Of a stretch of 64,000 bases of DNA, positions 241 to 64,000 are shown one piece after another. This DNA comes from Escherichia coli (GTDB taxonomy: Bacteria; Pseudomonadota; Gammaproteobacteria; Enterobacterales; Enterobacteriaceae). Below the pieces are notes generated by a model. That model was not told the origin of the DNA. It made no database searches and worked only from the letters and a program-made list of their open reading frames with translations. The first letter of the stretch is position 1. Every line of letters starts with the position of its first letter. The stretch is taken from assembly GCF_003790525.1 (NCBI RefSeq), contig NZ_CP033635.1. One strand, written 5' to 3'. Both the position numbers and the translations under genes were made by a program.

Positions 241-316
241 TGGTGGCCCCTGTTGGGTTTGAACCAACGACCAAGCGATTATGAGTCGCCTGCTCTAACC
301 ACTGAGCTAAGGGGCC
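241..316 (-). tRNA. ileX: tRNA-Ile2 (anticodon CAU, lysidine-type)
   Basis: Minus-strand sequence ggccccttagctcagtggttagagcaggcgactCATaatcgc...ggggccacca: 76 nt, cloverleaf-compatible, anticodon loop cuCAUaa, encoded 3' CCA. Position next to mug/rpoD matches ileX. Confidence 0.85.
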
Positions 317-21888: not shown

Positions 21889-23550
21889 TTATTCTACGTT
21901 TTCGGCGACGGGAGTTGTTGAGGTTAAGGGTGAAGTCAATGCAGCCAGTGAGCCGCCTGAAACGCCAATTTCATTGAGCAAGGAGTCAATCAGCGGTGCC
22001 TGTGTGCGGTAAGAAAGGGCGGCAGACAATGCCTGTTCTGCCAGGTTTCCGCCACTAACGCTGCCTGATGCCGCATCCCCCGCAGCACCACCTCGGTTTA
22101 ATCCATCGACCTGAATAATCTTAATGCCGTCAATGGACTTCATCGGCTCAACGGATTTCTCTATTACTGCAGGTAACGACTGTAATAGCGCCAGTTTGAA
22201 TTTAAGGCTGGTTTGCTCGTCAGAAAGTACGTTGATAGCGTCGTTCAGCGCACGTTGCGCTTCTGCTTCCGCCAGGCCTTTTTTGCGTGTTGCTTCGGCT
22301 AACTCAACGATCGCCGCCGCCTGCATCTCTGCGGCTTCTTTCTCTGCTTTCGCCCGCACGGTCAGTTCAACCGCTTTGGTTTCTGCATCCTGCGCGGCAG
22401 CGATTAGGGCAACTTGTTTAGCACGATCGGCTTCTGCGGTCTGGCGAGTGGTTTCTACGTTTTGCTGGGCGCTTACCGCTTCTGCAAGTGCAAGGTTGGC
22501 ACGCGCTTCCGCTTGTGACTGCTGTTCCGATTTGGCGGCAATAGCGATCGATTTCGTCTGGTTGGCGATTTCGGTGACCTGCTGTTGTTCGATCTCTTTA
22601 ATGCGAACTTCACGTTCAGCTTCAACTTTTCTTGAGCGGACGGCCTGTTCGCGGTCGATTTCTGTTTCCTGAATCTGTCGTTCAGCCAGAATTCGCGTCT
22701 GCTCTGCTTCACGACGACGTTCAGCTTCAAAAGCCGCAATTTTCGCATTCTGCTCAGCGGTACGGGTTTTAACCTGCTGCTCCTGCTCAAGCGTCATAAA
22801 CGCTTCTTGTTGTTCAATCTCCAACTTGCGCGAAAGTGCATCACGGTTTTTCTCACGCACCGCAACTTCTACATCCTGTTCAACTTCGTTACGTTCGCGA
22901 CGACGGCGCTCCGTCTCCTGCGTCAGCTTGGTTAAACCTTCGGCGTCAAAGGCGTTGTTAGGATTGAAATGTTCTTTCGACGTCTGGTTAAAGTTGGTAA
23001 GTGAAACGCTTTCCAGTTCCAGGCCGTTTTTCGACAGATCTTCAGCAACGGTATTTTGTACGCCCTGCACGAAGTTCTCGCGGGTATCCTGTAACTCATG
23101 CATGGTCATTTGCGCAGCTGTTGCACGGAGGGCATCGACAAATTTATCTTCAACCAACATACGTAAGTCTTCAGGCGACAGGGTGCGTTGCCCCAGCGTC
23201 TGGGCAGCGGTGGCGATCCCTTCTACTGAAGGTTTTACCCGCACAAAGAAAGCGACAACGACATCGACGCGCATACGATCTTTCGTAATCAGGCTATCAA
23301 TGGTTGAGCGGCTGACTTCCAGCTTCAGAGTATTCATATTGATGGGGATTATTTCATGGAAGATCGGCATCACGATTGCGCCACCGCTCATTACCACTTT
23401 TTGCCCACCTAAACCAGTACGAACAAAAGCTTGCTCTGCCGAAGCGCGACGATAGAGCCTGGCGAAAATAATTCCAATAATAAACAGAATGCATACGGCA
23501 ATAATCGCGGTAAACATCCAGGAGGGCACAGAATTAACAATATCATCCAT
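21889..23550 (-). CDS. yqiK: SPFH/flotillin-like membrane protein
   Basis: 553-aa ORF with an N-terminal TM helix, band-7 domain and long coiled-coil, E/Q/A-rich region. Confidence 0.85.
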   Translation of the reverse strand: MDDIVNSVPSWMFTAIIAVCILFIIGIIFARLYRRASAEQAFVRTGLGGQKVVMSGGAIVMPIFHEIIPINMNTLKLEVSRSTIDSLITKDRMRVDVVVAFFVRVKPSVEGIATAAQTLGQRTLSPEDLRMLVEDKFVDALRATAAQMTMHELQDTRENFVQGVQNTVAEDLSKNGLELESVSLTNFNQTSKEHFNPNNAFDAEGLTKLTQETERRRRERNEVEQDVEVAVREKNRDALSRKLEIEQQEAFMTLEQEQQVKTRTAEQNAKIAAFEAERRREAEQTRILAERQIQETEIDREQAVRSRKVEAEREVRIKEIEQQQVTEIANQTKSIAIAAKSEQQSQAEARANLALAEAVSAQQNVETTRQTAEADRAKQVALIAAAQDAETKAVELTVRAKAEKEAAEMQAAAIVELAEATRKKGLAEAEAQRALNDAINVLSDEQTSLKFKLALLQSLPAVIEKSVEPMKSIDGIKIIQVDGLNRGGAAGDAASGSVSGGNLAEQALSAALSYRTQAPLIDSLLNEIGVSGGSLAALTSPLTSTTPVAENVE

Positions 23551-23576
23551 TATTAAATTTCCTTTTGATTAATAAA

Positions 23577-24206
23577 TTACAATATTTGGGGCCAGGGATT
23601 GTTTTCCGCCAAATATCGAGTTGCAGAAAGTCGGCAAATAATTAACACTTTGTCTCCTTTAGTGAAAATTTTTCCTTCTTCAGGCTCCAGTAGTAAATAA
23701 TGTATTTGGCCAAATTGATCGGTGAGTTTTCCTTCGCAGGGATTACCTGAAGTGGCTTGATGACCGGTAATTAACGCCATGCTACCAATATATTCTTCTT
23801 CTGTAATAGCTGAGCTATGATCGCGTGGAATCCAGGGCGCAACTATTTTACCGGTATAATGCACCGCAATAATCGTAAACAGTAAACTGACAGGAACCAC
23901 AAACAGGTTCGAGAGTGGTGATTGCCAGACCATGATGCAGGTATGCTGCAACAGGATGCCAATAAGACCAAAAAAACCAGCCAGTAAGCAAAGAACGACG
24001 AGAGCTGGCAATCTTCCGATATTGAGATAATGAAGTGCCTGGCTAATATGACCTGTGGTTATGGAATCATAATGGTCAAGATGTGCATCAAGTGCACCGG
24101 AGAGCATGTGACCGCAGATAAGCGCAAAAATTTCTAAAAGGCCGATCAACAGTACAAAGGAAATAGCGAAAAGATAAGGGGTGTTATAGTCGGCGAATAA
24201 AATCAT
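23577..24206 (-). CDS. yqiJ: NfeD-like inner-membrane protein, partner of YqiK
   Basis: 209-aa polytopic ORF directly upstream of yqiK. Confidence 0.85.
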
Positions 24207-38110: not shown

Positions 38111-40006
<1,896 letters not shown>

Positions 40007-40024
40007 TAATCCTCCCGCCAGAAG

Positions 40025-40058
40025 AATAAAACATAGCCCGGTATACAAGTGTATACCG
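40025..40058 (+). terminator. parE rho-independent terminator
   Basis: agcccggtatac-aagt-gtataccgggct followed by TTTTTT. Confidence 0.75.
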
Positions 40059-40069
40059 GGCTTTTTTGA

Positions 40070-42211
40070 TCAAAATTCCATTTTCACCGTGAATTGCACT
40101 TCACGAGGATCGCCAATCTGGTTGCCCAGATTATTTGTGGCGATGGAAGAGGTGTAATACGTTTTATCAAACAGGTTTTTGACGTTTAATTGCAGTGTGA
40201 CCGGATACTGCAATTTCATTTTGTATGCGGCGAAGGCATCGGCAACGAAATAGCCTGGCAGATAATAGTCAGCCCCATTGGTTGCCGAACGACGGCTTAC
40301 GCCATGTCCACCACCGCCAAACGTCAGTGTGTTATTGCCAGGCATGTTATGAATGTCATAAGTCAGGAATAGCGAACCGGTATGACGAGGAACATTCGGC
40401 AATGGTTTCCCTGCATAATCAGGATCCTCCAGAACCTTAGCATCGGTATAGCCGTAGCTGGCAATGATATTAATGTTTTCAGTTAATGCTCCCGCAAGGT
40501 CGACTTCTACCCCTCTTGAACGAACACGGCCTGCCGTTTTGGCAATGGTTTCATCACCAACACTTTCGGTATACAACACATTACGTTTATGGATATCAAA
40601 CAGCGCAATATCTGCGGTGATACCATCGAATAGCTCGAATTTTGCCCCGACTTCGTAAGCATTAGATGATTCCGGTGGAAGATCGCCAATGTAGCTGGCA
40701 ATTGACGACTGCGGCATAAATGTTTGCGAATAATTGGCAAATAAGGATACCGATGGCGTCAGTTTGTAGACTAACCCCAGTTTGGGAGTCCATTGTTCAT
40801 CGCGGCTGTCAGTATTGACATTAAAAGGACGGCCTTTACCCGCATACTGCGTGTAATACTGATAGCGGATCCCGGCGACGGCAATCCAGTTATCGGTCAG
40901 ATAGAGTGCGTCCTGTGCATACGCTGAGTAGCTCTCCTGTTTGATCGTCTGATCACTGTCCGACGCCGAAACCGTTGTACATTTGCTGGTATTACCATAA
41001 ACAGGGTTGTAGATATTGAAATCTTTAGCTTTTTTACAGCGAATCATATCTGTACGCAGAAGATCATAATATTCATATGACACCCCACCCAGAATCTCAT
41101 TATAGAATCCGGCAATATCAACATTCCCTTGCAGATCCGCACGAGTAGCATGCATACGCTGGGTAGATCCCTGAGTTGCATCAACACGCCGTGTCAGTGT
41201 TCCTGTCGTTGCATCATACGCGGTAACACGCGCCTGATTATCGCTGTATTTATCCTGGCTGTAGCTGTAATCAAAGCGCGCTGTCCACTGGCTATTGAGA
41301 TGATATTCTGCGTTGAGTTGCGCCAGATCGGACTTTCCATCTGTAATATTAAACGGTTCGTCAAAACGTATTTTTCGATCAACGTTTACGGGCTGTTTCG
41401 TCGTAAGGTCGAAAATCGTTCCACGATCGAACGGAGTTTTATAGTCCCGATGGGAATAGAGCATAGTTACTGTTGCATTATCACCAAACCAGGTGAGTGA
41501 CGGGGCAATAAATGTACTGCGCTCTTTACCGAAGTTTCGCCAGTAATCTTCATCCTGCACTTCCCCGGTAAGGCGATACGCCAGCTGAGTGCCTTCAATG
41601 GGACCTGTGATATCAAGTTGCCCAGTGCCGCCACCAAAACTGGAGGAGGTGGCTGAAACCGAACCATGGAATGTTTTTTCCGGGCGCTTGGTCACGACGT
41701 TAATCAGTCCACCAGGATCGAGAATGCCATACAGCGTGGAGGCCGGACCTTTTAGCACTTCCACACGTTCTGTGGCGGCGTTGAAACTGCGAGGAAGTAC
41801 AGTTCGCAGGCCGTTGGTCATGATGGAGCCATCCCGGTTAGCACCAAACCCACGACGTACAAAGGCGTCCTGAGTTCCGCCTAATGTATTGGTCTGTACC
41901 ACGTTACTGACGTTATAAAGCGCTTCATCCAGCGTCGTCGCATTCTGATTTTCCAGAACCTGATCGCTAACAGTATTGACCACCTGCGGGATATCCAGCA
42001 TCGGCATATCGGTTAATGTCGCCGTGGAAGTGCTCAGAGGTTGATAACCATCGGTTGCCTCAGTTGCGGTATTTGCATCTGCTGTAACAGTGATTGTTTC
42101 GCCATCTTTGGTCGTTACAGAGTCTGTTGCATGAATCATCGGTGCCGCAAAAAGCAGTGAAAAGAGCGCCCGACCTTTGAGTCCTGAGAATGAAGGTGTG
42201 AACATAGCCAT
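40070..42211 (-). CDS. TonB-dependent outer-membrane siderophore receptor (accessory)
   Basis: 713-aa ORF with a signal peptide, TonB box ETITVTA, plug and beta-barrel, and a C-terminal aromatic residue (MEF). Confidence 0.85.
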   Translation of the reverse strand: MAMFTPSFSGLKGRALFSLLFAAPMIHATDSVTTKDGETITVTADANTATEATDGYQPLSTSTATLTDMPMLDIPQVVNTVSDQVLENQNATTLDEALYNVSNVVQTNTLGGTQDAFVRRGFGANRDGSIMTNGLRTVLPRSFNAATERVEVLKGPASTLYGILDPGGLINVVTKRPEKTFHGSVSATSSSFGGGTGQLDITGPIEGTQLAYRLTGEVQDEDYWRNFGKERSTFIAPSLTWFGDNATVTMLYSHRDYKTPFDRGTIFDLTTKQPVNVDRKIRFDEPFNITDGKSDLAQLNAEYHLNSQWTARFDYSYSQDKYSDNQARVTAYDATTGTLTRRVDATQGSTQRMHATRADLQGNVDIAGFYNEILGGVSYEYYDLLRTDMIRCKKAKDFNIYNPVYGNTSKCTTVSASDSDQTIKQESYSAYAQDALYLTDNWIAVAGIRYQYYTQYAGKGRPFNVNTDSRDEQWTPKLGLVYKLTPSVSLFANYSQTFMPQSSIASYIGDLPPESSNAYEVGAKFELFDGITADIALFDIHKRNVLYTESVGDETIAKTAGRVRSRGVEVDLAGALTENINIIASYGYTDAKVLEDPDYAGKPLPNVPRHTGSLFLTYDIHNMPGNNTLTFGGGGHGVSRRSATNGADYYLPGYFVADAFAAYKMKLQYPVTLQLNVKNLFDKTYYTSSIATNNLGNQIGDPREVQFTVKMEF

Positions 42212-42311
42212 TTAGTCTGTTATCCCAAAAACTCGCGGATTGTCGCGAGTGAAAATTGTTTCTTATTGCTCACTAAGCACTATCCGTTTGTTATTTCGCC
42301 ATCGGATATGT

Positions 42312-42330
42312 AATTGAGAATCATTCAATC
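42312..42330. promoter_or_regulatory. Candidate Fur box in the divergent receptor/ABC promoter region
   Basis: aattGAGAATCATTCaatc partially matches the GATAATGATAATCATTATC consensus (about 12 of 19). Confidence 0.25.
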
Positions 42331-42584
42331 ACGCAGTAATGTAGTAGTAAATGAGAAATAACAAAAAATTGCTACATGTGTTTTTATGAAAAGTTTATAC
42401 AATTTGATTGCTTTTAATTTATTGATATTTAATGGTTTTGTTTTTATGTGCAAAAATATTTTACCTGTTATTTACCTTGTTTTTGTGTGGCTTTTAACTG
42501 CTTGACTACTACATTTTGTGGCGTCAAACTCTCAAAGGAGAATGAGTTTTATTTTTGTTTGTCTTTGATTAAGTTGGCGTACAC

Positions 42585-43394
42585 GTGGCACATAACGCAA
42601 AAGGGCAGGGGCTGATCCTCGACAATGTTTCTGCCGGGTATCACAAGAAAATCATTGTTGATGGTGTTTCTTTCTCCGTTCCCACAGAAAAAATGACCGT
42701 TCTGGTTGGGGCAAACGGCTGTGGAAAGTCGACGCTGCTCAGCACCATTGCTCGTATCTTGCAACCCATGGGCGGTTCGATATTGCTGGATGGTAAAGCG
42801 ATTCACGAGCAACCAACGAAAGCGTTATCCCGTAGACTTGGGATCTTGCCGCAGTCGCCATTATTGCCGGAGGGCTTAACCGTTTATGAACTGGTGTCGC
42901 GTGGGCGTTTTCCCTGGCAGAATTTCATTCGTCAATGGAGCGACGCCGATGAGCTGGCGGTAGAAGAGGCCCTGAAATTAACGGGTACGCAGGAGTTTGC
43001 ACATTTACCTGTTGAAAAACTCTCTGGTGGGCAGCGCCAGCGTTGCTGGATTGCGATGGTGTTGGCGCAAAAGACGCCTTATATCCTGCTGGATGAACCC
43101 ACAACCTGGCTTGATTTACGTTATCAGGTTGAAATTCTTGAGTTATTACATGATTTAACGCGTCATCACGGGCGTACAGTCGTCGTGGTGTTGCATGATC
43201 TGAATTTTGCCGTCAATTATGGCGATACGTTGATATTTTTACGCCAGGGGAAAGTGGTGCGTGTGTTGAATGAGGGGGAGCATTGCACGCCTGAGCTGGT
43301 AAAAGCGGTCTTTGACGTTGATGTTCACGCATCAATAAATCCTCTGACGGGAAAGCCGTTCTTCATGCCGTTTCGTGGTGTAGAAAAAGTATGA
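42585..43394 (+). CDS. ABC transporter ATP-binding protein (FecE/FepC-like)
   Basis: Walker A GANGCGKST, signature LSGGQRQR, Walker B ILLDEP; GTG start with a weak SD. Confidence 0.85.
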   Translation: MAHNAKGQGLILDNVSAGYHKKIIVDGVSFSVPTEKMTVLVGANGCGKSTLLSTIARILQPMGGSILLDGKAIHEQPTKALSRRLGILPQSPLLPEGLTVYELVSRGRFPWQNFIRQWSDADELAVEEALKLTGTQEFAHLPVEKLSGGQRQRCWIAMVLAQKTPYILLDEPTTWLDLRYQVEILELLHDLTRHHGRTVVVVLHDLNFAVNYGDTLIFLRQGKVVRVLNEGEHCTPELVKAVFDVDVHASINPLTGKPFFMPFRGVEKV

Positions 43395-44374
43395 TGCGCA
43401 CAGGGCTGGTTACTGTAATTTTCCTCGCCTTACTGCTGGTGGGATGCGTGGTATATCCAGGGATTGGTGCCCGATTTATTGCACCACAAACGGTGTTGCA
43501 GGCATTTCTTCATTTTGATCCGCAAAACTTCGATCACAACGTAATTGTAAGACTCCGTTTGCCGCGTTTAGCGGCAGCATTGCTTACCGGTGCTTCTCTT
43601 GGAGTTGCTGGTGCTTTGTTGCAGGCTGTCATTCGTAACCCATTGGGGGAGCCACATATTTTAGGCTTAAATGCCGGAGCCGCTCTTGCTGTCGTTGCTG
43701 CCAGTGCGCTTGGGCTGGCCTTTCCGGTTGGACGCCCACTGCTGGCATCTACGGGCGGCGCGTTATTGTTCCTGTTGATATTGCTGCTTTCCTCCGCAGG
43801 GCGTTCAGGGTTAACGCCAATGAAAGTTACTTTATGCGGCGTGGCGCTATCGGCGTTCGTGTCCTCAATAACGGCTGCAATCCTGATTCTTGACGAACAA
43901 ACACTGCTGGCGATGCGGACATGGCTAGCAGGTGATTTAGCGGGGCAGGATTGGGCGACGCTGGGTACGTCCGCCTGGTTTTCTCTGGGGGGATTTGTGT
44001 TAGCCCTTTACCTTGCACCCTCCCTTAACATGTTGGCACTGGGCGATCGCATGGCGCAGGGGCTGGGCGTCTCTGTATTCCGCACGCGAACATTCACCCT
44101 GCTTGCGATCGCGTTGCTCTGTGGCGCAGCCGTATCGATTGCTGGCCCCATTGGTTTTGTCGGCCTGCTAGTACCGCAGATTGTCCGGCGTCTGGTATCA
44201 GCGGATCTGCGCGTTCTGCTCCCTCTTTCAGCTTGTGTCGGCGCACTTTTGTTATTACTGGCAGATATTATTGCCCGTACGCTTTTCACACCCCATGAGT
44301 TAGCGACCGGTGTCATGACGGCGTTAGTTGGTGCGCCTGTTTTTGTCATTATGGCGACGAGGATGTTCAAATGA
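43391..44374 (+). CDS. ABC transporter permease, FecCD family
   Basis: 327-aa polytopic ORF; start overlaps the ATPase stop. Confidence 0.85.
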   Translation: MMRTGLVTVIFLALLLVGCVVYPGIGARFIAPQTVLQAFLHFDPQNFDHNVIVRLRLPRLAAALLTGASLGVAGALLQAVIRNPLGEPHILGLNAGAALAVVAASALGLAFPVGRPLLASTGGALLFLLILLLSSAGRSGLTPMKVTLCGVALSAFVSSITAAILILDEQTLLAMRTWLAGDLAGQDWATLGTSAWFSLGGFVLALYLAPSLNMLALGDRMAQGLGVSVFRTRTFTLLAIALLCGAAVSIAGPIGFVGLLVPQIVRRLVSADLRVLLPLSACVGALLLLLADIIARTLFTPHELATGVMTALVGAPVFVIMATRMFK

Positions 44375-45420
44375 GTCGGATAATGAACGTCGGGCTACGC
44401 CCACTACGTGTTGGTAAGTTTTCGACACTGGTACGCCCTAAAAATCTGCTGTTGCTTGGTGGGCTGTTCCTGCTTGCGGTTGGAATACTGATATTCGGTC
44501 TGATGCAGGGTTCTTTCTCTGTTCCGGCATCGGAAGTAGGACGAGCGTTGTTTGCTCCAGAAAACGTAAGCACAGACGCACGTTATATTGTGCAGGATAT
44601 TCGCTTGCCGAGAGTCATCATGGCATTGCTATGCGGGGCCATGTTAGGTATGGCAGGGGCCGCAATGCAATCCATTGCACGTAACGGCCTTGCCGATCCT
44701 GGTTTAATCGGCGTCAAAGAAGGATGTAGCGTGGCTGTGCTGTGGCTGATTTTCCAGTTTCCAATGCTGGGAATGTTCTGGCGTCCAGTGGCTGGTCTTG
44801 CTGGTGGCCTGTTGGTGGCTTTAATCGTGATTTTTTGTGCGCGCGATATTTCCCGCCCGCGATTTGTTCTGATTGGTATTGGTGTTTCCTGGTTTTTCGC
44901 CGCCGGTATCGGTGTATTTATGACCACTGCAGATGTTCGAGATGTACAAACTGCATTGATGTGGTTATCGGGAAGCCTGCATGCAGCTAACTGGATGTTA
45001 GTCGCTATTTCAGCCTGTTGGATGTTGCCAGCCGCTCTTTTATTGCTGTTCACCGCCAGGACGGCGGATATCGCTCTGCTTGGTCATCAGGTTGCAACCG
45101 GGTTAGGGGTGAATAGTTCTCGTCTGGCGTTGTTACGTGTCGCTGCACCCATAATCCTGACAGCCGTCTGCGTTTCGTGTGTTGGTAACATCGGTTTTGT
45201 CGGATTGATAGCACCCCATATATCACGTTTTATTCTACGTGGCGGGCAGACGACATTACTGCTGGGGAGCGCGGTATCGGGGGCGTTGTTAGTTATTCTG
45301 GCGGATAGCATTGGTCGTTTGGCTTTTTTGCCTTTGCAACTGCCTGCCGGAATCATTATCTCACTGATTGGTGGACCATTTTTTTTGCTACTGCTCTGGC
45401 AGCGCAGGAACAGTTTTTAA
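44371..45420 (+). CDS. ABC transporter permease, FecCD family
   Basis: 349-aa polytopic ORF; overlaps the upstream permease by 4 nt. Confidence 0.85.
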   Translation: MSRIMNVGLRPLRVGKFSTLVRPKNLLLLGGLFLLAVGILIFGLMQGSFSVPASEVGRALFAPENVSTDARYIVQDIRLPRVIMALLCGAMLGMAGAAMQSIARNGLADPGLIGVKEGCSVAVLWLIFQFPMLGMFWRPVAGLAGGLLVALIVIFCARDISRPRFVLIGIGVSWFFAAGIGVFMTTADVRDVQTALMWLSGSLHAANWMLVAISACWMLPAALLLLFTARTADIALLGHQVATGLGVNSSRLALLRVAAPIILTAVCVSCVGNIGFVGLIAPHISRFILRGGQTTLLLGSAVSGALLVILADSIGRLAFLPLQLPAGIIISLIGGPFFLLLLWQRRNSF

Positions 45421-45430
45421 CGGGAGTTAT

Positions 45431-46378
45431 ATGCGTTTATTTTTTTCTCTGCTGATACTGTTGTCATTTTTTTCCCGTGCAACAGAACCTGTTCAGGTAT
45501 TTACTGATGATTTAGGGCGCAAAGTCACTGTTCCTGCTCATCCAAAGAGAATTGTCTCTTTACACGATCTTGATATCACTATTCCTCTGATTGAGCTCGG
45601 TGTACCTCCTGTCGCCAGCCACGGGCGAACTCGGCCTGACGGTAGCCATTTCATTCGATCTGGCGCGTTATTGACAGGTGTCGACTTTGATAATTCATCG
45701 ATCGCCTTTATTGGTACCGCTGATATTGATATTGAAGCGATTGTGGCGGCAAAGCCTGACCTGATCATCACAGAACCGACCCGTAATACGCCCATTGAAC
45801 AACTTGAAAAAATTGCGCCCACGGTGAGCATTGATCATCTCAAAGGGGGCGCGCCAGAAATCTATCGCAAGCTGGCAGAACTTACAGGAACGCAGTCGCA
45901 GCTGGCGATACTTGAACGCCGCTATCAGGCACAAATCAATGCGCTGAAGGCGACGCTGGACAGCCAAAAAATAACGGTATCGGTGATTCAGGCAAACCAG
46001 GGAAAAATTAATGTGATGCATAGCTATCATTCGCTGGGGCGGGTATTACGCGATGCTGGTTTTCGTTTTCCGCCGCTGATTGAGAGCATTCCTGAAGGTG
46101 GGCGAATGGATGTGAGCGCGGAGCGTTTACCTGAACTGGATGCCGATTTTGTTTTTGCAACCTGGCGCGGTGACACCGGTGGTAAACCTCAGGATGAGCT
46201 GGCAGCAATGGAAAAAGTCATGCCGGGATGGTGTCAGTTTCTGACTGCCTGTCGTTCCGGGCGTTATGTGCTGATTTCTCGTGAAGAGGCGATTTCTAAC
46301 TCCTTTGCATCTCTGGGGCTGATGGCTGCGCAGATACAATCACAAATTGCAGGGCGACCTCTACCGGAGGATAAATGA
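45431..46378 (+). CDS. Periplasmic substrate-binding protein (FecB/FepB-like, cluster A)
   Basis: Product starting MRLFFSLLILLSFFSRA (signal peptide) at the ATG at 45431, with a GGGAG SD. Confidence 0.8.
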   Translation: MRLFFSLLILLSFFSRATEPVQVFTDDLGRKVTVPAHPKRIVSLHDLDITIPLIELGVPPVASHGRTRPDGSHFIRSGALLTGVDFDNSSIAFIGTADIDIEAIVAAKPDLIITEPTRNTPIEQLEKIAPTVSIDHLKGGAPEIYRKLAELTGTQSQLAILERRYQAQINALKATLDSQKITVSVIQANQGKINVMHSYHSLGRVLRDAGFRFPPLIESIPEGGRMDVSAERLPELDADFVFATWRGDTGGKPQDELAAMEKVMPGWCQFLTACRSGRYVLISREEAISNSFASLGLMAAQIQSQIAGRPLPEDK

Positions 46379-47262
46379 TCCAGAAAGATAAAGCGCGGGT
46401 TGATATTTTTGGTGAGCGTTTTCGCACTCGCGCGAGTCAGTTAACGCCTGGGTTAAGAGTTGTCGCCAGCTACATTAATGAGCATCGTGAAGTGGTACTC
46501 GAGCAAACGGCGATGGAAATTGCGGCCACGTTGAACACTTCCGATGCCACAGTTATCAGGGCTATACAGGCCCTGGGGTTTGCCGGGCTGCGTGATCTGA
46601 AACGCACTCTGGAACAGTGGCTTGGTCCAGCCCTTAGTTCCAGCGAAAAGATGTCTACGACGGTGAGTAACTTGACGAGCGATGTTAACACCGCAATCGA
46701 CTTTGTTCTTGAAGGGCATTTGTATACCTGTAATGTCCTGTCAGAGCCTGAAAACCGCCACGCGCTTGCGCAAGCTGTAGCGTTGTTGGTGCAGGCACGG
46801 CAAGTCGCTATTTTTGGCATTGGCGCTTCGGGTATCCTGGCGGACTATACCGCACGACTATTCAACCGCATAGGTTTGCCTGCCACGGCACTAAACCGTA
46901 CGGGTATTGGCCTTGCCGAGCAACTGATCGCGCTTCAACGTGGCGATGTTCTGATCATGATGGCGCAAAAATCTGCGCACCGGGAAGGGCTGACAACGCT
47001 TCGTGAGGCGAGGCGGCTGGGGATCCCTGTTATTTTGCTGACAAACGCGCTGGATTCACGTTTTAGCAAAGACGCCAGTATCGTGATTCATGTTCCGCGC
47101 GGGGATGAAAAAGGGAAAACGCCGCTACATGGTACGGTATTGTTGTGTCTGGAAATGATTGTCTGGTCGGTAGCTTCCGCAGTGCCGCAGCGTGCGGTTA
47201 AAACCATTAAGCGAATTAACGATTTCCATCGAGGACTGAAAACGGGAAGAAAGAATGGCTAA
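46375..47262 (+). CDS. RpiR/MurR-family transcriptional regulator (HTH plus SIS domain)
   Basis: 295-aa ORF with an N-terminal HTH (TAMEIAATLNTSDATVIRAIQALGFAGLRDLK) and a SIS phosphosugar-binding fold (IFGIGASGILA); overlaps the binding-protein stop. Confidence 0.8.
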   Translation: MIQKDKARVDIFGERFRTRASQLTPGLRVVASYINEHREVVLEQTAMEIAATLNTSDATVIRAIQALGFAGLRDLKRTLEQWLGPALSSSEKMSTTVSNLTSDVNTAIDFVLEGHLYTCNVLSEPENRHALAQAVALLVQARQVAIFGIGASGILADYTARLFNRIGLPATALNRTGIGLAEQLIALQRGDVLIMMAQKSAHREGLTTLREARRLGIPVILLTNALDSRFSKDASIVIHVPRGDEKGKTPLHGTVLLCLEMIVWSVASAVPQRAVKTIKRINDFHRGLKTGRKNG

Positions 47263-58067: not shown

Positions 58068-59414
58068 TCAGGTCGAAAATAATCCTGGCAGCATCAGACT
58101 AAGCTGCGGGAAATAACAAATAATTGCCATTACTACAAACAATGCCAGAAACATCGGCAGTAATGGTTTTATTGCCCTGTCGATACTGACCTTACCAATG
58201 CTGCAACCAACAAACAGAATGGTGCCAACGGGTGGTGTACAAAGGCCAATGGTCAAGTTGAACACCATAATAATACCGAAGTGGATGGGATCTATTCCCA
58301 GATGCTGAGCGATCGGCAGGAAAATAGGCGTAAATATCAGGATCGCCGGTGTGATATCCATAAAGGTACCGACGATCAACAGAATGATATTGATGATAAA
58401 CAGAATAACCCATTTGTTATCCGAAACACTGGTAATCAGTTCGTTGATCAACTCAGGAACATCAGCATTCGTCATGGCCCATGACATCCCCATCGAGCAG
58501 CCTACCAGTAACAGAACAATTGAACTGGTTACTACCGAATCTAACAGAATATCATTGAGCTTCTTAAAAGTGATTTCCCGGTAAATCATCGCCAGGGCTA
58601 AACTATAAATTACCGCAATTGCCGATGCTTCCGTGGGCGTGAATACCCCTGCGATAATACCGCCAATAATGATAAAAATAAGCATCAGGCTGGGAATTGA
58701 TTCGCGGAATACCTGCAAAAATTGATGAAAATTGATACGTTCGGCCACCGGATAATGGTTACGTCGCGCATAAAGTGCCGCCACAAACATTAAAGCAGCA
58801 GCGGTGAGAATGCCTGGCAAGTATCCGGCTAAGAACAACGCAGCAACAGAAGTCCCGCCACTGGCGAGGGAATAAACAATCAACACATTGCTCGGTGGGA
58901 TCATCAGGCCAATGGGGGCAGAGGCAATATTAACCGCTGCTGAAAACGCCGGATCATAGCCCTCTTTTTCTTGCAGTGGTGACATAATTCCACCTACCGC
59001 GGCGGCTGACGCAACGGCTGAACCTGAAATCGCACCAAACAGCGTATTCGCGAGGATATTACAATGAGCCAGTGAGCCAGGAAGACGCCCAACTAATGCT
59101 TGCGCTAGGTTAACCAGTCGTCTGGCTATACCACCGGTATTCATAATGTTTCCGGCTAACACGAAGAAGGGAATGGCTAATAGCGTAAAGCCATCCAGCC
59201 CCACAGTCATCTTTTGCGAAATCACAGAAATGGCGGCATCGGGTGGTAAGGCAGTAATAATAGATAACAGCGAAGAAAGACCAATCGCAAAAGTAATTGG
59301 CACACCGATTGCCAGCATGACGGCAAAACTGCCAAATAAAATTAAGACGGGGTAGATATATTCAAAGTCCATATTTCCCTCGTTAATGAAAATTCCGTTT
59401 ACGATAGTTGTCAA
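58068..59414 (-). CDS. TRAP transporter large permease (DctM family)
   Basis: 448-aa polytopic ORF; the true start may be the internal MDFEYIYP. Confidence 0.85.
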   Translation of the reverse strand: MTTIVNGIFINEGNMDFEYIYPVLILFGSFAVMLAIGVPITFAIGLSSLLSIITALPPDAAISVISQKMTVGLDGFTLLAIPFFVLAGNIMNTGGIARRLVNLAQALVGRLPGSLAHCNILANTLFGAISGSAVASAAAVGGIMSPLQEKEGYDPAFSAAVNIASAPIGLMIPPSNVLIVYSLASGGTSVAALFLAGYLPGILTAAALMFVAALYARRNHYPVAERINFHQFLQVFRESIPSLMLIFIIIGGIIAGVFTPTEASAIAVIYSLALAMIYREITFKKLNDILLDSVVTSSIVLLLVGCSMGMSWAMTNADVPELINELITSVSDNKWVILFIINIILLIVGTFMDITPAILIFTPIFLPIAQHLGIDPIHFGIIMVFNLTIGLCTPPVGTILFVGCSIGKVSIDRAIKPLLPMFLALFVVMAIICYFPQLSLMLPGLFST

Positions 59415-59865
59415 TAATATTCATTACTGAATACCAGACCAGAATAAGTCCACTGACAGGCATAACCCAATATACTTTATCCATTGGCCATTTTAATACT
59501 GGAGAGATTTGTCCAACATGTTGTGCTTTTTCAACAACAATATTCCCGCCATAGATCATGAAAATAACCGCAAAGACCGTAATAATAATTTGGATAAAAC
59601 TGTCAAGCGTCAGAACAGATGCAGCCGGAAGTTTTTGAGCCAACAAATCAATGGCCAGATGTTTTTTTAACCCCGCAGTATATACACCGCCAAGTAAAAT
59701 CATCCACATAAATAAAATCTGGGTGAACTCATCAAGCACAGTGCTGGGAGCGTTAAAAATAAAACGTGCAATAACTTGCTAGGTTACGCAGAACACCATA
59801 ATGGCGAGAATAATGCAGCAACATCCGGCAAGGATCTTATTAAGAATATGAGTGAGTGTTCGCAT
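59383..59865 (-). pseudogene. TRAP transporter small permease (DctQ family) interrupted by an in-frame TAG at codon 29
   Basis: ATG at 59865 with a GGAAG SD, giving MRTLTHILNKILAGCCCIILAIMVFCVT, then TAG (59781-59779), then the frame continues QVIARFIFNAPSTVLDEFTQILFMWMILLGG... to 59383. Confidence 0.6.
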
Positions 59866-59906: not shown

Positions 59907-60890
59907 TTACATACTTTCTACTAGCTCAAGGTTTTTGGCTGATTGTGCATCTTTCGCCTTGAATTCATCGTATAACGGTTTGACGCGTTCTTTGAAAGCG
60001 GATTTATCAACATCAACAACTGTTGCGTTCATCCCTTTCATTTTGTCGTAGGCTTCTTTTTCAGCCGCAGGCCAGATGACGTCCTTCATCTGCATCATGG
60101 ACTCATCGGCTGCTTTTAATAATGCCGTGCGCTCTTTATCACCAAGTTTATTCAACACGTTGGTGCTGATAATTAACACATCAGGTACCATGGTGTGTTC
60201 ATCACGTGAATAGACTTTTGCGACTTCGGCGTGACGCATATCGGAATAGACAACGGTATTGTTCTCTCCGCCATCAACCACTCCTTGCTGAAGTGCGGTG
60301 TAGAGTTCGCCTTGCGCCATCGGGGTAGCGACACCACCGAGTGCTTTCATCATTGCAATGGCGCTGGGGCTTTGTTGAACCCTGATTTTCATTCCCGCTA
60401 AATCTTCAGGTTTTGTAATCGGTTTATTGGAATAAAAACTTCTCGCACCGCCGTCATAGTACGTAATACCAACAAAACCTTTGCTTTCTGATGAATTAAG
60501 TATTTTTTTACCTAAATCACTTTGCAGAACACGATAATAGTGATCACGGTCGCGGAATAAGAACGGCAGACTGAAAAGGCTGTAATCTGGAGCAAATGAT
60601 TCTAGTGATGCGGCATTAACCTTAACCATCTGTAATGCACCGGAGTTCATTAATTCCAGTGATTCACGCTCATTACCTAATGTTGCATTTGGGTAAATGC
60701 GAATAACTAATTCACCATTAGAATACTCTTTGGTTTTATCCGCTAAATAGCTTAATGCTTTATGGACAGCATGGCTTTTATCCTGATTATGACTCAGTTT
60801 TAATGTTGTTTTTGCCAGTGTGGTATTAGATATTAATAAACAACTGGTTAACAGCATAAGCGATGCCGTCAGAGGACGAAGTGCTTTCAT
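59907..60890 (-). CDS. TRAP transporter periplasmic solute-binding protein (DctP family)
   Basis: 327-aa ORF with a signal peptide and DctP-type fold. Confidence 0.85.
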   Translation of the reverse strand: MKALRPLTASLMLLTSCLLISNTTLAKTTLKLSHNQDKSHAVHKALSYLADKTKEYSNGELVIRIYPNATLGNERESLELMNSGALQMVKVNAASLESFAPDYSLFSLPFLFRDRDHYYRVLQSDLGKKILNSSESKGFVGITYYDGGARSFYSNKPITKPEDLAGMKIRVQQSPSAIAMMKALGGVATPMAQGELYTALQQGVVDGGENNTVVYSDMRHAEVAKVYSRDEHTMVPDVLIISTNVLNKLGDKERTALLKAADESMMQMKDVIWPAAEKEAYDKMKGMNATVVDVDKSAFKERVKPLYDEFKAKDAQSAKNLELVESM

Positions 60891-60962: not shown

Positions 60963-61973
60963 TTAATTCTCTGCCAGATAATGGAATATTCCTGCCGGAA
61001 CCGGAATACCTTCCTGTTGGCATTTTTCTTTGTAGTGTATTTGCGGATCGTTCGGCGCTAACACTTTTTCGACACCGGGAGCCGGTTTAACGGCATGCAG
61101 CTCCGTGACCATTTTCGCCATGGTTTTTGCAAAAACAGGATTGCCGAGCTTTTTCGGATCGATGGCAATAACCAAACTTGCCAGCTTACGCATCTTGTCA
61201 TAATCACCATACATGCGAACAATATGGTTGCCAAAATTCGCATTCATCAGCACGCCAGTCAGTGCATCAATAGCCAGTGCAATGCCTGAACCTTTGTGTT
61301 GGCCGAAAGGTAGCAGGTTTTCAATCTTATACGGATCAGTGGTGCCATAACCGTTTTTATCTATCGCCAGCCCTTCACCAATATGTTTTCCGGTTTCCTT
61401 TGCATGAAGTATTTTGCCGAAAGCCGTGGCACTGGTCGCCATATCAACAATCATCGGATGGCTGTTTTCCACCGGGAAACCAAAGGCGATGGGGTTAGTT
61501 CCCAAAAAGCGCTCGGCGCCGCCATGGGGAGCCACACAGGTATCGGTTTGCGTCATTACGATAGCAACCAACCCTTTGTTGGTGATCATCTCTGCAAAAT
61601 AAGATAACGCACCACAGTGAGACGTGTTTTTAACGCTAACAAAACCGAGGCCCTCTTGCTGGGCCAGTTTAATAGCGTGCTCAGTGGCGCTAATTAATGC
61701 GGAATGCCCCATTCCGTCGTCAGAGTCGAGAATGGCCACTGACGGTGAAATTTGCTCAATGCTAAACTGCGGGGCTTTATTTAACCCTCCGGCAGCAAGG
61801 CGGGTGCAATAATGTTCGACACGCATAACACCATGTGAATGCACACCTGTAATATCGGCATGTACTAAAACATCTGTCACCTGTTGTGTGGTGTCGGTAT
61901 CCAGCCCGGCGGTATGTAATTTGTGGTGCACCAGTGATTTTAAATTTTCTTCACTGACATAAACAGTTGTCAT
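60963..61973 (-). CDS. Ldh_2-family (malate/L-lactate/sulfolactate type) NAD(P)-dependent dehydrogenase, YiaK-like
   Basis: 336-aa ORF ...HGVMRVEHY...GHSA...HKGSGIA... Confidence 0.8.
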   Translation of the reverse strand: MTTVYVSEENLKSLVHHKLHTAGLDTDTTQQVTDVLVHADITGVHSHGVMRVEHYCTRLAAGGLNKAPQFSIEQISPSVAILDSDDGMGHSALISATEHAIKLAQQEGLGFVSVKNTSHCGALSYFAEMITNKGLVAIVMTQTDTCVAPHGGAERFLGTNPIAFGFPVENSHPMIVDMATSATAFGKILHAKETGKHIGEGLAIDKNGYGTTDPYKIENLLPFGQHKGSGIALAIDALTGVLMNANFGNHIVRMYGDYDKMRKLASLVIAIDPKKLGNPVFAKTMAKMVTELHAVKPAPGVEKVLAPNDPQIHYKEKCQQEGIPVPAGIFHYLAEN

Positions 61974-61983
61974 ATTTGTTCCC

Positions 61984-63000
61984 TTAAAAAGTGATCACAC
62001 CCTTGACCATATTTTTATTTTCTACAACGTTACGCTGGTAATCTTCGCCAACACTAAAGAAATTGAACGCCTGGTTTTTCATTAAATTTTCGTGAATTTT
62101 ATTGCTGCGCATCAGTTCAATCACCAACGCAAAATCTTCCCGTGTGGCATTGCGGCTGCTGAGTAACGTTGTCTCTTTTTTATGGAAGGTCGGATCGTCA
62201 ATAACAAGTTCACCAATGTACAAACCGATGAAAACAATTTTGCCGCCATGACGAATAAGATTTACATCATGACTCATTGAAGCTTTATTTCCCGTCGCAT
62301 CCAGTACTACGCAAGCCAGTTCGCCTCCAAATACTTCACTAAGCGCGGCAATAAAACCTTCCTGTGTTGGGTCGAAGACATTAATTGCCAGATGATCCAC
62401 AACGTGCTGGCGACGTTGACAGTCAATATCAGCAACAACAACATGCGCCCCTTTAGCCCTGGCGATGGCTGCGGTAGCCAAACCGATTGGCCCAGCACCA
62501 ATCACCAGTACGTTTTGTTCAGCCTTGATCTCTGCCCGACGAACGGCATGTGCACCAATGGCGAAACATTCAACCAATGCTCCGGCACTGTCGCTGACCT
62601 CGTCAGGGAGAGGCACAAGGTTGTCTTCACGTACCGCAAGGTACTCACTAAAACCCCCATCCTGATGCACGCCATACAGCGAAACACGTTCGCAGCAGTT
62701 CGTTTTCTCTTCCCGACAGGCTGCGCACTCGCCACACGGAATGCATGGGATGACGGAATAGCGCTGGCCTGATTGTGCTGTTTGGCACTGGCTGCCTCGC
62801 GAAACCGCTTCGGCGCATATTTCATGACCTAATACACGTGGGTAGCTAAAAAAAGGCTGTCTGCCGGCAAAAGCGTGAATATCAGTACCACAAATACCCA
62901 CAGCTTTGATTTTTAACAGCACTTCATTATCTGCTGGTGTGGGAATATCCTTTTCCACATATTCCATAACGCCAGGCTGCTGACAAATTAATGTTTTCAT
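61984..63000 (-). CDS. Zinc-dependent medium-chain alcohol/polyol dehydrogenase
   Basis: 338-aa ORF with GHE, CxxC...C zinc sites and a GAGPIG NAD-binding motif. Confidence 0.8.
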   Translation of the reverse strand: MKTLICQQPGVMEYVEKDIPTPADNEVLLKIKAVGICGTDIHAFAGRQPFFSYPRVLGHEICAEAVSRGSQCQTAQSGQRYSVIPCIPCGECAACREEKTNCCERVSLYGVHQDGGFSEYLAVREDNLVPLPDEVSDSAGALVECFAIGAHAVRRAEIKAEQNVLVIGAGPIGLATAAIARAKGAHVVVADIDCQRRQHVVDHLAINVFDPTQEGFIAALSEVFGGELACVVLDATGNKASMSHDVNLIRHGGKIVFIGLYIGELVIDDPTFHKKETTLLSSRNATREDFALVIELMRSNKIHENLMKNQAFNFFSVGEDYQRNVVENKNMVKGVITF

Positions 63001-64000
63001 TTCTGCTCATCCGATAATAATTGGCTGATGGTGGCCTTGATGCCTTTGTTTTTTATATTCGCAAAGGCGATTTTTATTTCATTTATAAATGGCTGATGGT
63101 TGCTTAAATCACCAAATATGGCGCTAAGGTGCAGTAATGCGAGCGCCTGTTGCCATGCGTCTTGTTGTTCCTTTATTAGCGCCTGAAATTGGTCATTCAT
63201 TGGATCAGCGGCAGACTGGCTTTTCTCAACAGCATCAATGACATAATGCAACCAACCAGCAATGAGCAGTGACAGAACAGCATTGTTTTGCTTTTGCTGA
63301 TGCAATTTCAGCCAGGGCGTCAGCGCTCGCTGGGGAAGCTTTTGTGAACCGTCCATGGCTATTTGCCCGGTACGGTGTGCAACGTTACGGTTGCTAAAGC
63401 GTTCAATTAACAGGTCGGCGTATTCCTGGATGTTGATATTTAAGTCTGGATTAAGTGTTCGGGCTTGTTCATTAATCATCAGTTGGTGGGTAATGGAACG
63501 AAAATTAGCGTCTTCCATGCATTGCCAGATAAACTCATAGCCTGCCAGCGAGCCGTTATAAGCCAGAAATGAATGGCTACCATTTAACATGCGTAACTTC
63601 ATCTCTTCATAAGGCTGAACATTGCTGACAAACATCGCGCCGGCTTTATCCCATTGTGGTCGTCCGCGCACAAAATTATCTTCGATCACCCACTGACGAA
63701 ATGATTCGCAGACGATCCCGCAGGGATCGGCATAACCGGTTTTCGTTTCCAGTAAGGCGAATTGCGATTCAGTCATTGCCGGAACAATGCGATCTACCAT
63801 CGTGCCTGGAAATGAGACATTTTCTTCGATCCACTGAGCCAGGGGCTGGTCCAGTTGTCGGGCAAAACCGAGAACGGCATTGCGCGTCAGATGCCCATTG
63901 TCTGGCAAGTTGTCACAGGAGAGCACACTAAAAGCGGCGAGTCCTGTCGCTTTACGTTGTTGCAAAGCACAGACGATCACGCCAATAGCTGACAGAGGCG
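62997..64000 (-). CDS. Mannitol-dehydrogenase-family oxidoreductase (mannonate/fructuronate reductase-like), N-terminus outside the window
   Basis: The frame stays open to the window edge; the C-terminal 330 or so residues are of mannitol-DH type; overlaps the Zn-ADH start by 4 nt. Confidence 0.75.
   Translation of the reverse strand, partial: PLSAIGVIVCALQQRKATGLAAFSVLSCDNLPDNGHLTRNAVLGFARQLDQPLAQWIEENVSFPGTMVDRIVPAMTESQFALLETKTGYADPCGIVCESFRQWVIEDNFVRGRPQWDKAGAMFVSNVQPYEEMKLRMLNGSHSFLAYNGSLAGYEFIWQCMEDANFRSITHQLMINEQARTLNPDLNINIQEYADLLIERFSNRNVAHRTGQIAMDGSQKLPQRALTPWLKLHQQKQNNAVLSLLIAGWLHYVIDAVEKSQSAADPMNDQFQALIKEQQDAWQQALALLHLSAIFGDLSNHQPFINEIKIAFANIKNKGIKATISQLLSDEQK

Follow-up and report, generated by a model that had tools for sequence, protein, structure and literature searches.

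The window, by which we mean the whole stretch of 64,000 nucleotides analysed here, is a segment of the E. coli chromosome that includes rpoD, tolC, parE, qseBC, parC, plsC and ftsP. Between ftsP and ygiQ lies an accessory operon of seven genes on the minus strand, the coordinates of which are collected in Table 1. The transporter genes follow each other in the order P-Q-M on the minus strand, and the small-permease gene dctQ adjoins both the DctM gene and the DctP gene. The window ends within the mannitol dehydrogenase family gene, which in E. coli SMS-3-5 has its full length of 1473 nt and is followed by a GntR/FadR regulator and ygiQ. Of 5426 complete E. coli genomes, 1207 have the island at this single conserved site, CFT073, UTI89, Nissle 1917 and ST131 strains among them. 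In one of the 1207 the dctQ region occurs once more on a plasmid, giving 1208 places in 1207 genomes.

Table 1. Features of the ftsP-ygiQ island in the window, with the interrupted dctQ gene and its parts.
Feature	Position	Strand	Basis
dctM, TRAP large permease, intact	58068..59372	-	TIGR00786 511.7 bits; PGAP CDS WP_012311865.1
dctQ-type TRAP small-permease pseudogene, 160 codons and stop	59383..59865	-	Pfam DctQ on intact orthologue; PGAP
GTG at codon 43 of dctQ, candidate restart	59737..59739	-	118-aa ORF in the ORF list; without ribosome-binding site
Amber TAG, dctQ codon 29 (Trp29 to stop)	59779..59781	-	Plus-strand cta; TGG in CFT073 and HCM-24C-3
CTAGG pentamer, mutated remnant of a Dcm site (ancestral CCAGG)	59779..59783	+	Comparison with HCM-24C-3
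Sole translatable product, N-terminal peptide of 28 residues ending within TM1	59782..59865	-	Translation; hydrophobicity
dctP, TRAP periplasmic substrate-binding protein, intact	59907..60890	-	NF037995 238.9 bits; TIGR00787 220.4 bits
Ldh-family (AllD-like) oxidoreductase, intact, same operon	60963..61973	-	
Zinc-binding alcohol dehydrogenase family protein, intact	61984..63000	-	
Mannitol dehydrogenase family (UxuB-like) gene, 5' part beyond the window end	62997..64000	-	

The best solved relatives of the DctP protein (WP_000645963.1) are the TRAP DctP subunits 4ovr and 4x8r, which are listed only as "DctP subunit"; of 4ovr, 4x8r, 4n8y and 4mhf, several have reportedly been solved with hexuronates. 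In the BEN2908 comparison the region appears as "GR 21 ygiQ..ftsP" and is predicted to be a module for sugar acids, with enzymes resembling UxuB and YjjN; the mannitol dehydrogenase family gene shows 49.2% identity to UxuB and the BEN2908 orthologue of the zinc-binding alcohol dehydrogenase 55.3% identity to YjjN (PMC12928451). The enzymes of the operon suggest that the substrate is a sugar acid of the hexuronate or aldonate type, not sialic acid or a C4-dicarboxylate.

A second accessory module, with all genes annotated as intact, is situated between parE and ygiN at about 40070-47260 of the window. It contains a TonB-dependent siderophore receptor, an FecCD-type ABC transporter (ATPase, two permeases and binding protein) and an RpiR regulator, and it corresponds to "GR 22 ygiN..parE" (PMC12928451). 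The only tRNA gene in the window (241-316, minus strand) is called tRNA-Met by ARAGORN, with anticodon CAT, and tRNA-Ile by RefSeq in SMS-3-5; it is presumably a lysidine-modified CAU isoleucine tRNA of the ileX type.

The dctQ frame consists of 28 sense codons, a TAG, another 131 sense codons and a TAA at 59385-59383, and the translation of the minus strand from 59865 to 59383 reads MRTLTHILNKILAGCCCIILAIMVFCVT*QVIARF...NFH*, with asterisks for the stops. A first-pass annotation made from the sequence had described an amber TAG at 59779-59781 with 28 and 131 codons on its two sides and an end at 59383, and every coordinate and count proved correct on retranslation. Its identification of a dctQ-type small permease also holds, as the gene has a Pfam DctQ match and lies between the DctM and DctP genes. 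The intact orthologue in CFT073 matches Pfam DctQ (PF04290) with E=6.5e-27 over residues 23-154, corresponding to model positions 1-130 of 132, and codon 29 is therefore inside the conserved domain.

The CFT073 gene has the same start and the same stop as the gene in the window and encodes Trp (TGG) at codon 29; the TAG and three synonymous SNPs are all that separates the two. The base that differs is position 59780 of the plus strand, which is T in the window and C in intact alleles. The stop is thus one specific substitution of TGG by TAG relative to intact alleles, and not a chance feature of a random frame. The first-pass annotation had proposed an alignment with intact orthologues to find the codon normally present, which is TGG in both CFT073 and HCM-24C-3, and had considered that the protein might normally start downstream of the TAG. 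The latter is contradicted both by the intact alleles, which use the same ATG and have Trp at codon 29, and by the homology to Pfam DctQ and to the PpSiaQ structure, which begins upstream of the stop.

In RefSeq the gene is already treated as a pseudogene (ECSMS35_RS16705 in E. coli SMS-3-5, NC_010498.1). PGAP describes it as "TRAP transporter small permease, pseudo, internal stop" with identical boundaries in all five TAG carriers inspected (SMS-3-5, CFSAN061771, M160133, EC190329 and N-01), and as intact in CFT073 and HCM-24C-3. Neither the uninterrupted frame nor the four transmembrane helices of a functional DctQ are present, and the window copy is a pseudogene that descends from the family. 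What characterizes a pseudogene formed by a nonsense mutation was found, namely a sense codon in orthologues that begin and end at the same positions, and recurrence of the change in independent sequences.

The distribution of the two alleles was determined by exact matches to the 61-mer centred on the site in the 1207 island-bearing genomes among the 5426 complete E. coli genomes. The TGG 61-mer was present in 1152 of the 1207 genomes and the TAG 61-mer in 38, while the remaining 17 have some other SNP within the 61-mer. An identity of at least 99.7% to positions 40001-64000 of the window (24 kb) is shown by 38 genomes, and these are precisely the carriers of TAG; the 39th closest genome over these 24 kb, HCM-24C-3 (99.0%), has TGG. 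The carriers were obtained from humans, poultry/chickens, dogs, a cat, a pangolin and river water on several continents, and they include SMS-3-5, a record from 2008. Recurrent independent origins at a mutational hotspot were considered and rejected: none was seen, and the carriers match one haplotype group exactly.

A sequencing or assembly error in place of a true TGG codon, which the first-pass annotation had left as an option, has a next to negligible probability. Single-base assembly errors do occur, and the window differs at three bases or more in 24 kb from every complete RefSeq genome. Its three private differences are located elsewhere (41972, 47781 and 59106), none of them in dctQ, and the TAG 61-mer recurs unchanged in 38 complete genomes that were sequenced independently, in different laboratories and years and from different hosts and countries, and that form one haplotype group. 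Because 38 independent genomes share the allele and form one group, an error is excluded for practical purposes and a single clonal origin is the simplest explanation.

No complete RefSeq genome is identical to the window, and the best eight tie at three mismatches in 24 kb. SMS-3-5 differs by three SNPs over the same distance, none in dctQ. SMS-3-5 belongs to ST354 (PMC9174282), which is included in phylogroup F (PMC12817139), and the window is from an E. coli of this lineage. Since one haplotype group comprises exactly the TAG carriers, the simplest reading is a nonsense mutation that occurred once, in an ancestor of the SMS-3-5/ST354 clone, and was then inherited.

Several rearrangements were observed in the same genomes. 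The TAG carriers are split into 30 genomes with about 100% identity to the window and eight with 99.7%, and the two sub-groups differ by 67 SNPs that are clustered at 40000-42900 of the window (the 3' end of parE and the TonB-dependent receptor gene) with almost none elsewhere; this cluster is a recombination patch next to parE. Over the first 16 kb (cpdA to ygiS) no difference separates the TGG genome HCM-24C-3 from the TAG carrier M160133, and 198 sites then differ from parC through ygiQ, with the switch at about 16000 of the locus, corresponding to about 53000 of the window (the start of parC). This recombination boundary near parC either marks a replacement of the pseudogene-bearing segment or is the edge of the segment in which the TAG arose. 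In the TAG carrier EC190329 an IS200C insertion is found between parE and the TonB-dependent receptor gene (locus positions 311-769), outside the TRAP island. In the SMS-3-5 lineage dctM has diverged unusually far from its CFT073 and HCM-24C-3 counterparts, with pS 0.147 compared with 0.004-0.096 in the other six island genes, which suggests that the part of the island nearest ftsP is mosaic and has recombined. Outside the window, at 2140001-2190000 of SMS-3-5, torS is annotated as frameshifted, and the tor-hya-ompA-ssuE region at 2.14-2.19 Mb runs in the opposite order to that in K-12, pointing to an inversion of a large part of the chromosome.

The sequence context of the mutation points to its origin. 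On the plus strand the intact alleles (HCM-24C-3) read TTGCCAGGTTAC and the window reads TTGCTAGGTTAC, so that position 59780 is the inner C of CCAGG, a Dcm site (CCWGG), changed to T, and TGG on the coding strand has become TAG. This is the pattern of a Dcm hotspot, an ancestral CCWGG with the inner C replaced by T. The intact dctQ gene contains only one CCWGG site (nt 83-87), and the change at this site is one of 17 stop-creating transitions possible among 480 positions in the gene, while Dcm 5-methylcytosines constitute 0.55% of the positions in the window. Only two CTAGG pentamers are found in the 64 kb, at 59105 and 59779, and both are CCAGG in close relatives. The former (59105-59109, minus strand, in dctM) has a T at 59106 that is private to the window, SMS-3-5 and M160133 having C, and the change is synonymous (CTG to CTA, Leu).

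In a species-wide count, dcm-vsr was present in 5358 of 5426 complete E. coli genomes (98.7%). In lacI the classic amber hotspot is a change from C to T at the second C of CCAGG, explained by 5-methylcytosine being deaminated to thymine (PMC12606429), and both such hotspots and their partial counteraction by Vsr very-short-patch repair are established (PMC12606429, PMC2715241). Judged from this context, the dctQ mutation probably arose by deamination of 5-methylcytosine, although a replication error could yield the same G:C to A:T transition without deamination. In the ancestor of the SMS-3-5/ST354 clone, the inner C of the only Dcm site in dctQ would then have been converted to T (CCAGG to CTAGG at 59780), most likely by a spontaneous deamination that escaped very-short-patch repair, with Trp29 TGG turned into amber TAG on the coding (minus) strand. 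Inheritance has been clonal, and all sampled descendants have the TAG allele.

The best hydrophobic 19-mer of DctQ is residues 11-29, which places the stop at the end of TM1. The alignment to PpSiaQ (7qha) starts at residue 18 and pairs Trp29 with PpSiaQ Trp27 and Arg34 with Arg32. The latter residue is fully conserved and forms a salt bridge to Glu237 of SiaM; the contact of the Q subunit with the M scaffold buries about 2400 Å², and a role of Q in enlarging the scaffold of the elevator mechanism has been proposed, and SiaQ and SiaM have been described as an essential stoichiometric complex (Mulligan 2012, as cited in PMC9971032; other data from PMC9971032). Translation of the window gene would end after 28 residues, inside the first transmembrane helix, and would leave no functional Q subunit. 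Because Q and M form an obligatory complex, with Q as an extension of the scaffold of the elevator-type M, this accessory sugar-acid operon is expected to have an inactive DctPQM transporter. Inactivation of the transporter by a nonsense mutation, as suggested in the first-pass annotation, is thus the most probable outcome in the SMS-3-5/ST354 lineage, judging by what is known of the TRAP family. Effects on the neighbouring gene are conceivable as well. The dctM gene starts 11 nt past the dctQ stop and keeps its own Shine-Dalgarno sequence (GAGGGA, duplex -6.4 kcal/mol), though about 400 nt of dctQ mRNA would be left untranslated and Rho-dependent polarity on dctM may follow.

Reinitiation soon after a premature stop is known in bacteria, and an uninterrupted ORF of 118 codons, the only remnant of the gene in the program-made ORF list, begins at the GTG at 59739 (codon 43). 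The first-pass annotation had mentioned an N-terminally truncated protein from this codon, and a functional permease could be imagined to arise there or from a later ATG. No Shine-Dalgarno pairing was found upstream of codons 43, 53 and 55; the anti-Shine-Dalgarno duplex has an energy of +1.2 kcal/mol at codon 43, compared with -3.3 at the native dctQ start and -6.4 at the dctM start. None of the downstream in-frame starts has a Shine-Dalgarno sequence as strong as that of dctM, the best being codon 148 (-3.9 versus -6.4 kcal/mol). The truncated product would also lack TM1 and have three transmembrane helices instead of four, which is incompatible with the N-in/C-in topology, and it would be without Arg34, the counterpart of the fully conserved PpSiaQ Arg32 with its salt bridge to SiaM, in a protein whose Pfam domain begins at residue 23. 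A working permease made by reinitiation is accordingly very improbable.

It is also unlikely, if not quite to the same degree, that leaky termination keeps the transporter partly functional, so that the mutation is a knock-down and not a knock-out. Among the stop codons UAG is the one that E. coli uses least, and low-frequency readthrough is possible, by a near-cognate or a suppressor tRNA. The 131 downstream codons are free from a second lesion, and position 29 is variable (Ala in H. influenzae SiaQM, Val in 8y4w), implying that a substitution could be tolerated. However, typical spontaneous readthrough is well below 1-2%, and the only tRNA in the window has anticodon CAT, so no suppressor tRNA was found there. 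The stop is restricted to one near-clonal group and is therefore not a programmed recoding site, and the lack of lesions is what the very low diversity of the lineage leads one to expect. Programmed readthrough or recoding was considered separately and rejected, as the stop occurs only in 38 near-identical genomes and all diverged haplotypes sampled have TGG.

With regard to the rest of the operon, the first-pass annotation had proposed a decayed island that is not under selection. This does not agree with the data. All six other island genes are intact in SMS-3-5, and also in the window up to its end; pN/pS is 0.00-0.30 across the seven island genes when the SMS-3-5, HCM-24C-3 and CFT073 haplotypes are compared, and the island occupies its conserved site in 1207 of the 5426 genomes. 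The substitution pattern points to long-term purifying selection on the island in the species. The TAG clade has hardly any internal diversity (0-3 SNPs per 24 kb apart from the one recombination patch), and for this reason the absence of further lesions is uninformative about current selection. There would have been too little time for further decay of the other operon genes, and the loss of dctQ is most probably recent and confined to one lineage. In one carrier, N-01, an IS5-family transposase splits the zinc-dependent alcohol dehydrogenase gene (N-01 locus positions 22084-24165). This is a single case, and it would agree with a relaxation of selection once the first hit had occurred.

All 38 sampled members of this globally spread, multi-host lineage have the TAG allele, which is thus fixed among them, and it may be asked if inactivation was positively selected as the ST354 clone emerged, a pathoadaptive loss for which the Dcm hotspot merely supplied the mutation. 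The insertion in N-01, as a second independent hit in the operon, would then reflect continued selection against the pathway. Fixation throughout a clone is however equally expected of a neutral founder mutation, and under relaxed selection a further hit would be expected to follow the first. There was one origin only, with no convergent inactivation in the other genomes inspected, and the island is under purifying selection elsewhere. Adaptive loss is accordingly very unlikely.

Taken together, dctQ is very probably a recently formed, lineage-specific pseudogene in which a Trp29 to TAG mutation at a Dcm site would have abolished the transporter, and the rest of the operon stayed intact. The mutation is real and ordinary, it concerns a pseudogene already annotated in RefSeq, and the protein family, the type of operon and the mutational mechanism are all textbook. 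The readings that would have had any novelty are an adaptive loss in ST354 and a functional leaky readthrough, neither of which is supported here. The practical value lies in the prediction that E. coli of the ST354/SMS-3-5 lineage would be unable to import the substrate, probably a sugar acid, of the ftsP–ygiQ TRAP operon. Many ExPEC strains of phylogroups B2 and F keep the operon intact, and SMS-3-5, if used as a reference for the island, would be a natural null. The TAG (CTAGG, 59779-59783) is furthermore a clean single-nucleotide marker of the lineage and a natural example of the textbook Dcm/5-methylcytosine amber hotspot, with no new mechanism involved.

Comparisons with known transporters show that the intact allele resembles DctQ/SiaQ proteins (PF04290; PpSiaQM 7qha and HiSiaQM 7qe5) in its length of 160 amino acids and in hydrophobic stretches that match TM1, TM3 and TM4, whereas the window copy ends after 28 residues. 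YiaMNO, the 2,3-diketo-L-gulonate transporter of E. coli K-12, is likewise a TRAP system of E. coli, and the Q subunit has no NCBIfam match other than YiaM. The scores are far from those of equivalogs (33.2 bits for YiaM, with a cutoff of 260, and 289 bits for YiaN, with a cutoff of 800), and the island, unlike YiaMNO, is located between ftsP and ygiQ and is absent from most genomes. For the mutation itself the nearest parallel is lacI, in which Coulondre, Miller, Farabaugh and Gilbert reportedly found amber hotspots at CCAGG Dcm sites in 1978. In both genes the second C of CCAGG has undergone a G:C to A:T transition, giving CTAGG and an amber codon. The deaminated C of the lacI hotspots is on the coding strand (CAG to TAG), whereas that of dctQ is on the non-coding strand (TGG to TAG), and the dctQ allele is a variant of natural populations and not a laboratory mutant. 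The closest counterparts of all are ECSMS35_RS16705 in SMS-3-5 and the corresponding genes in 37 other complete genomes, which are the same gene with the same boundaries and the same TAG and have no substantive difference from the copy in the window.
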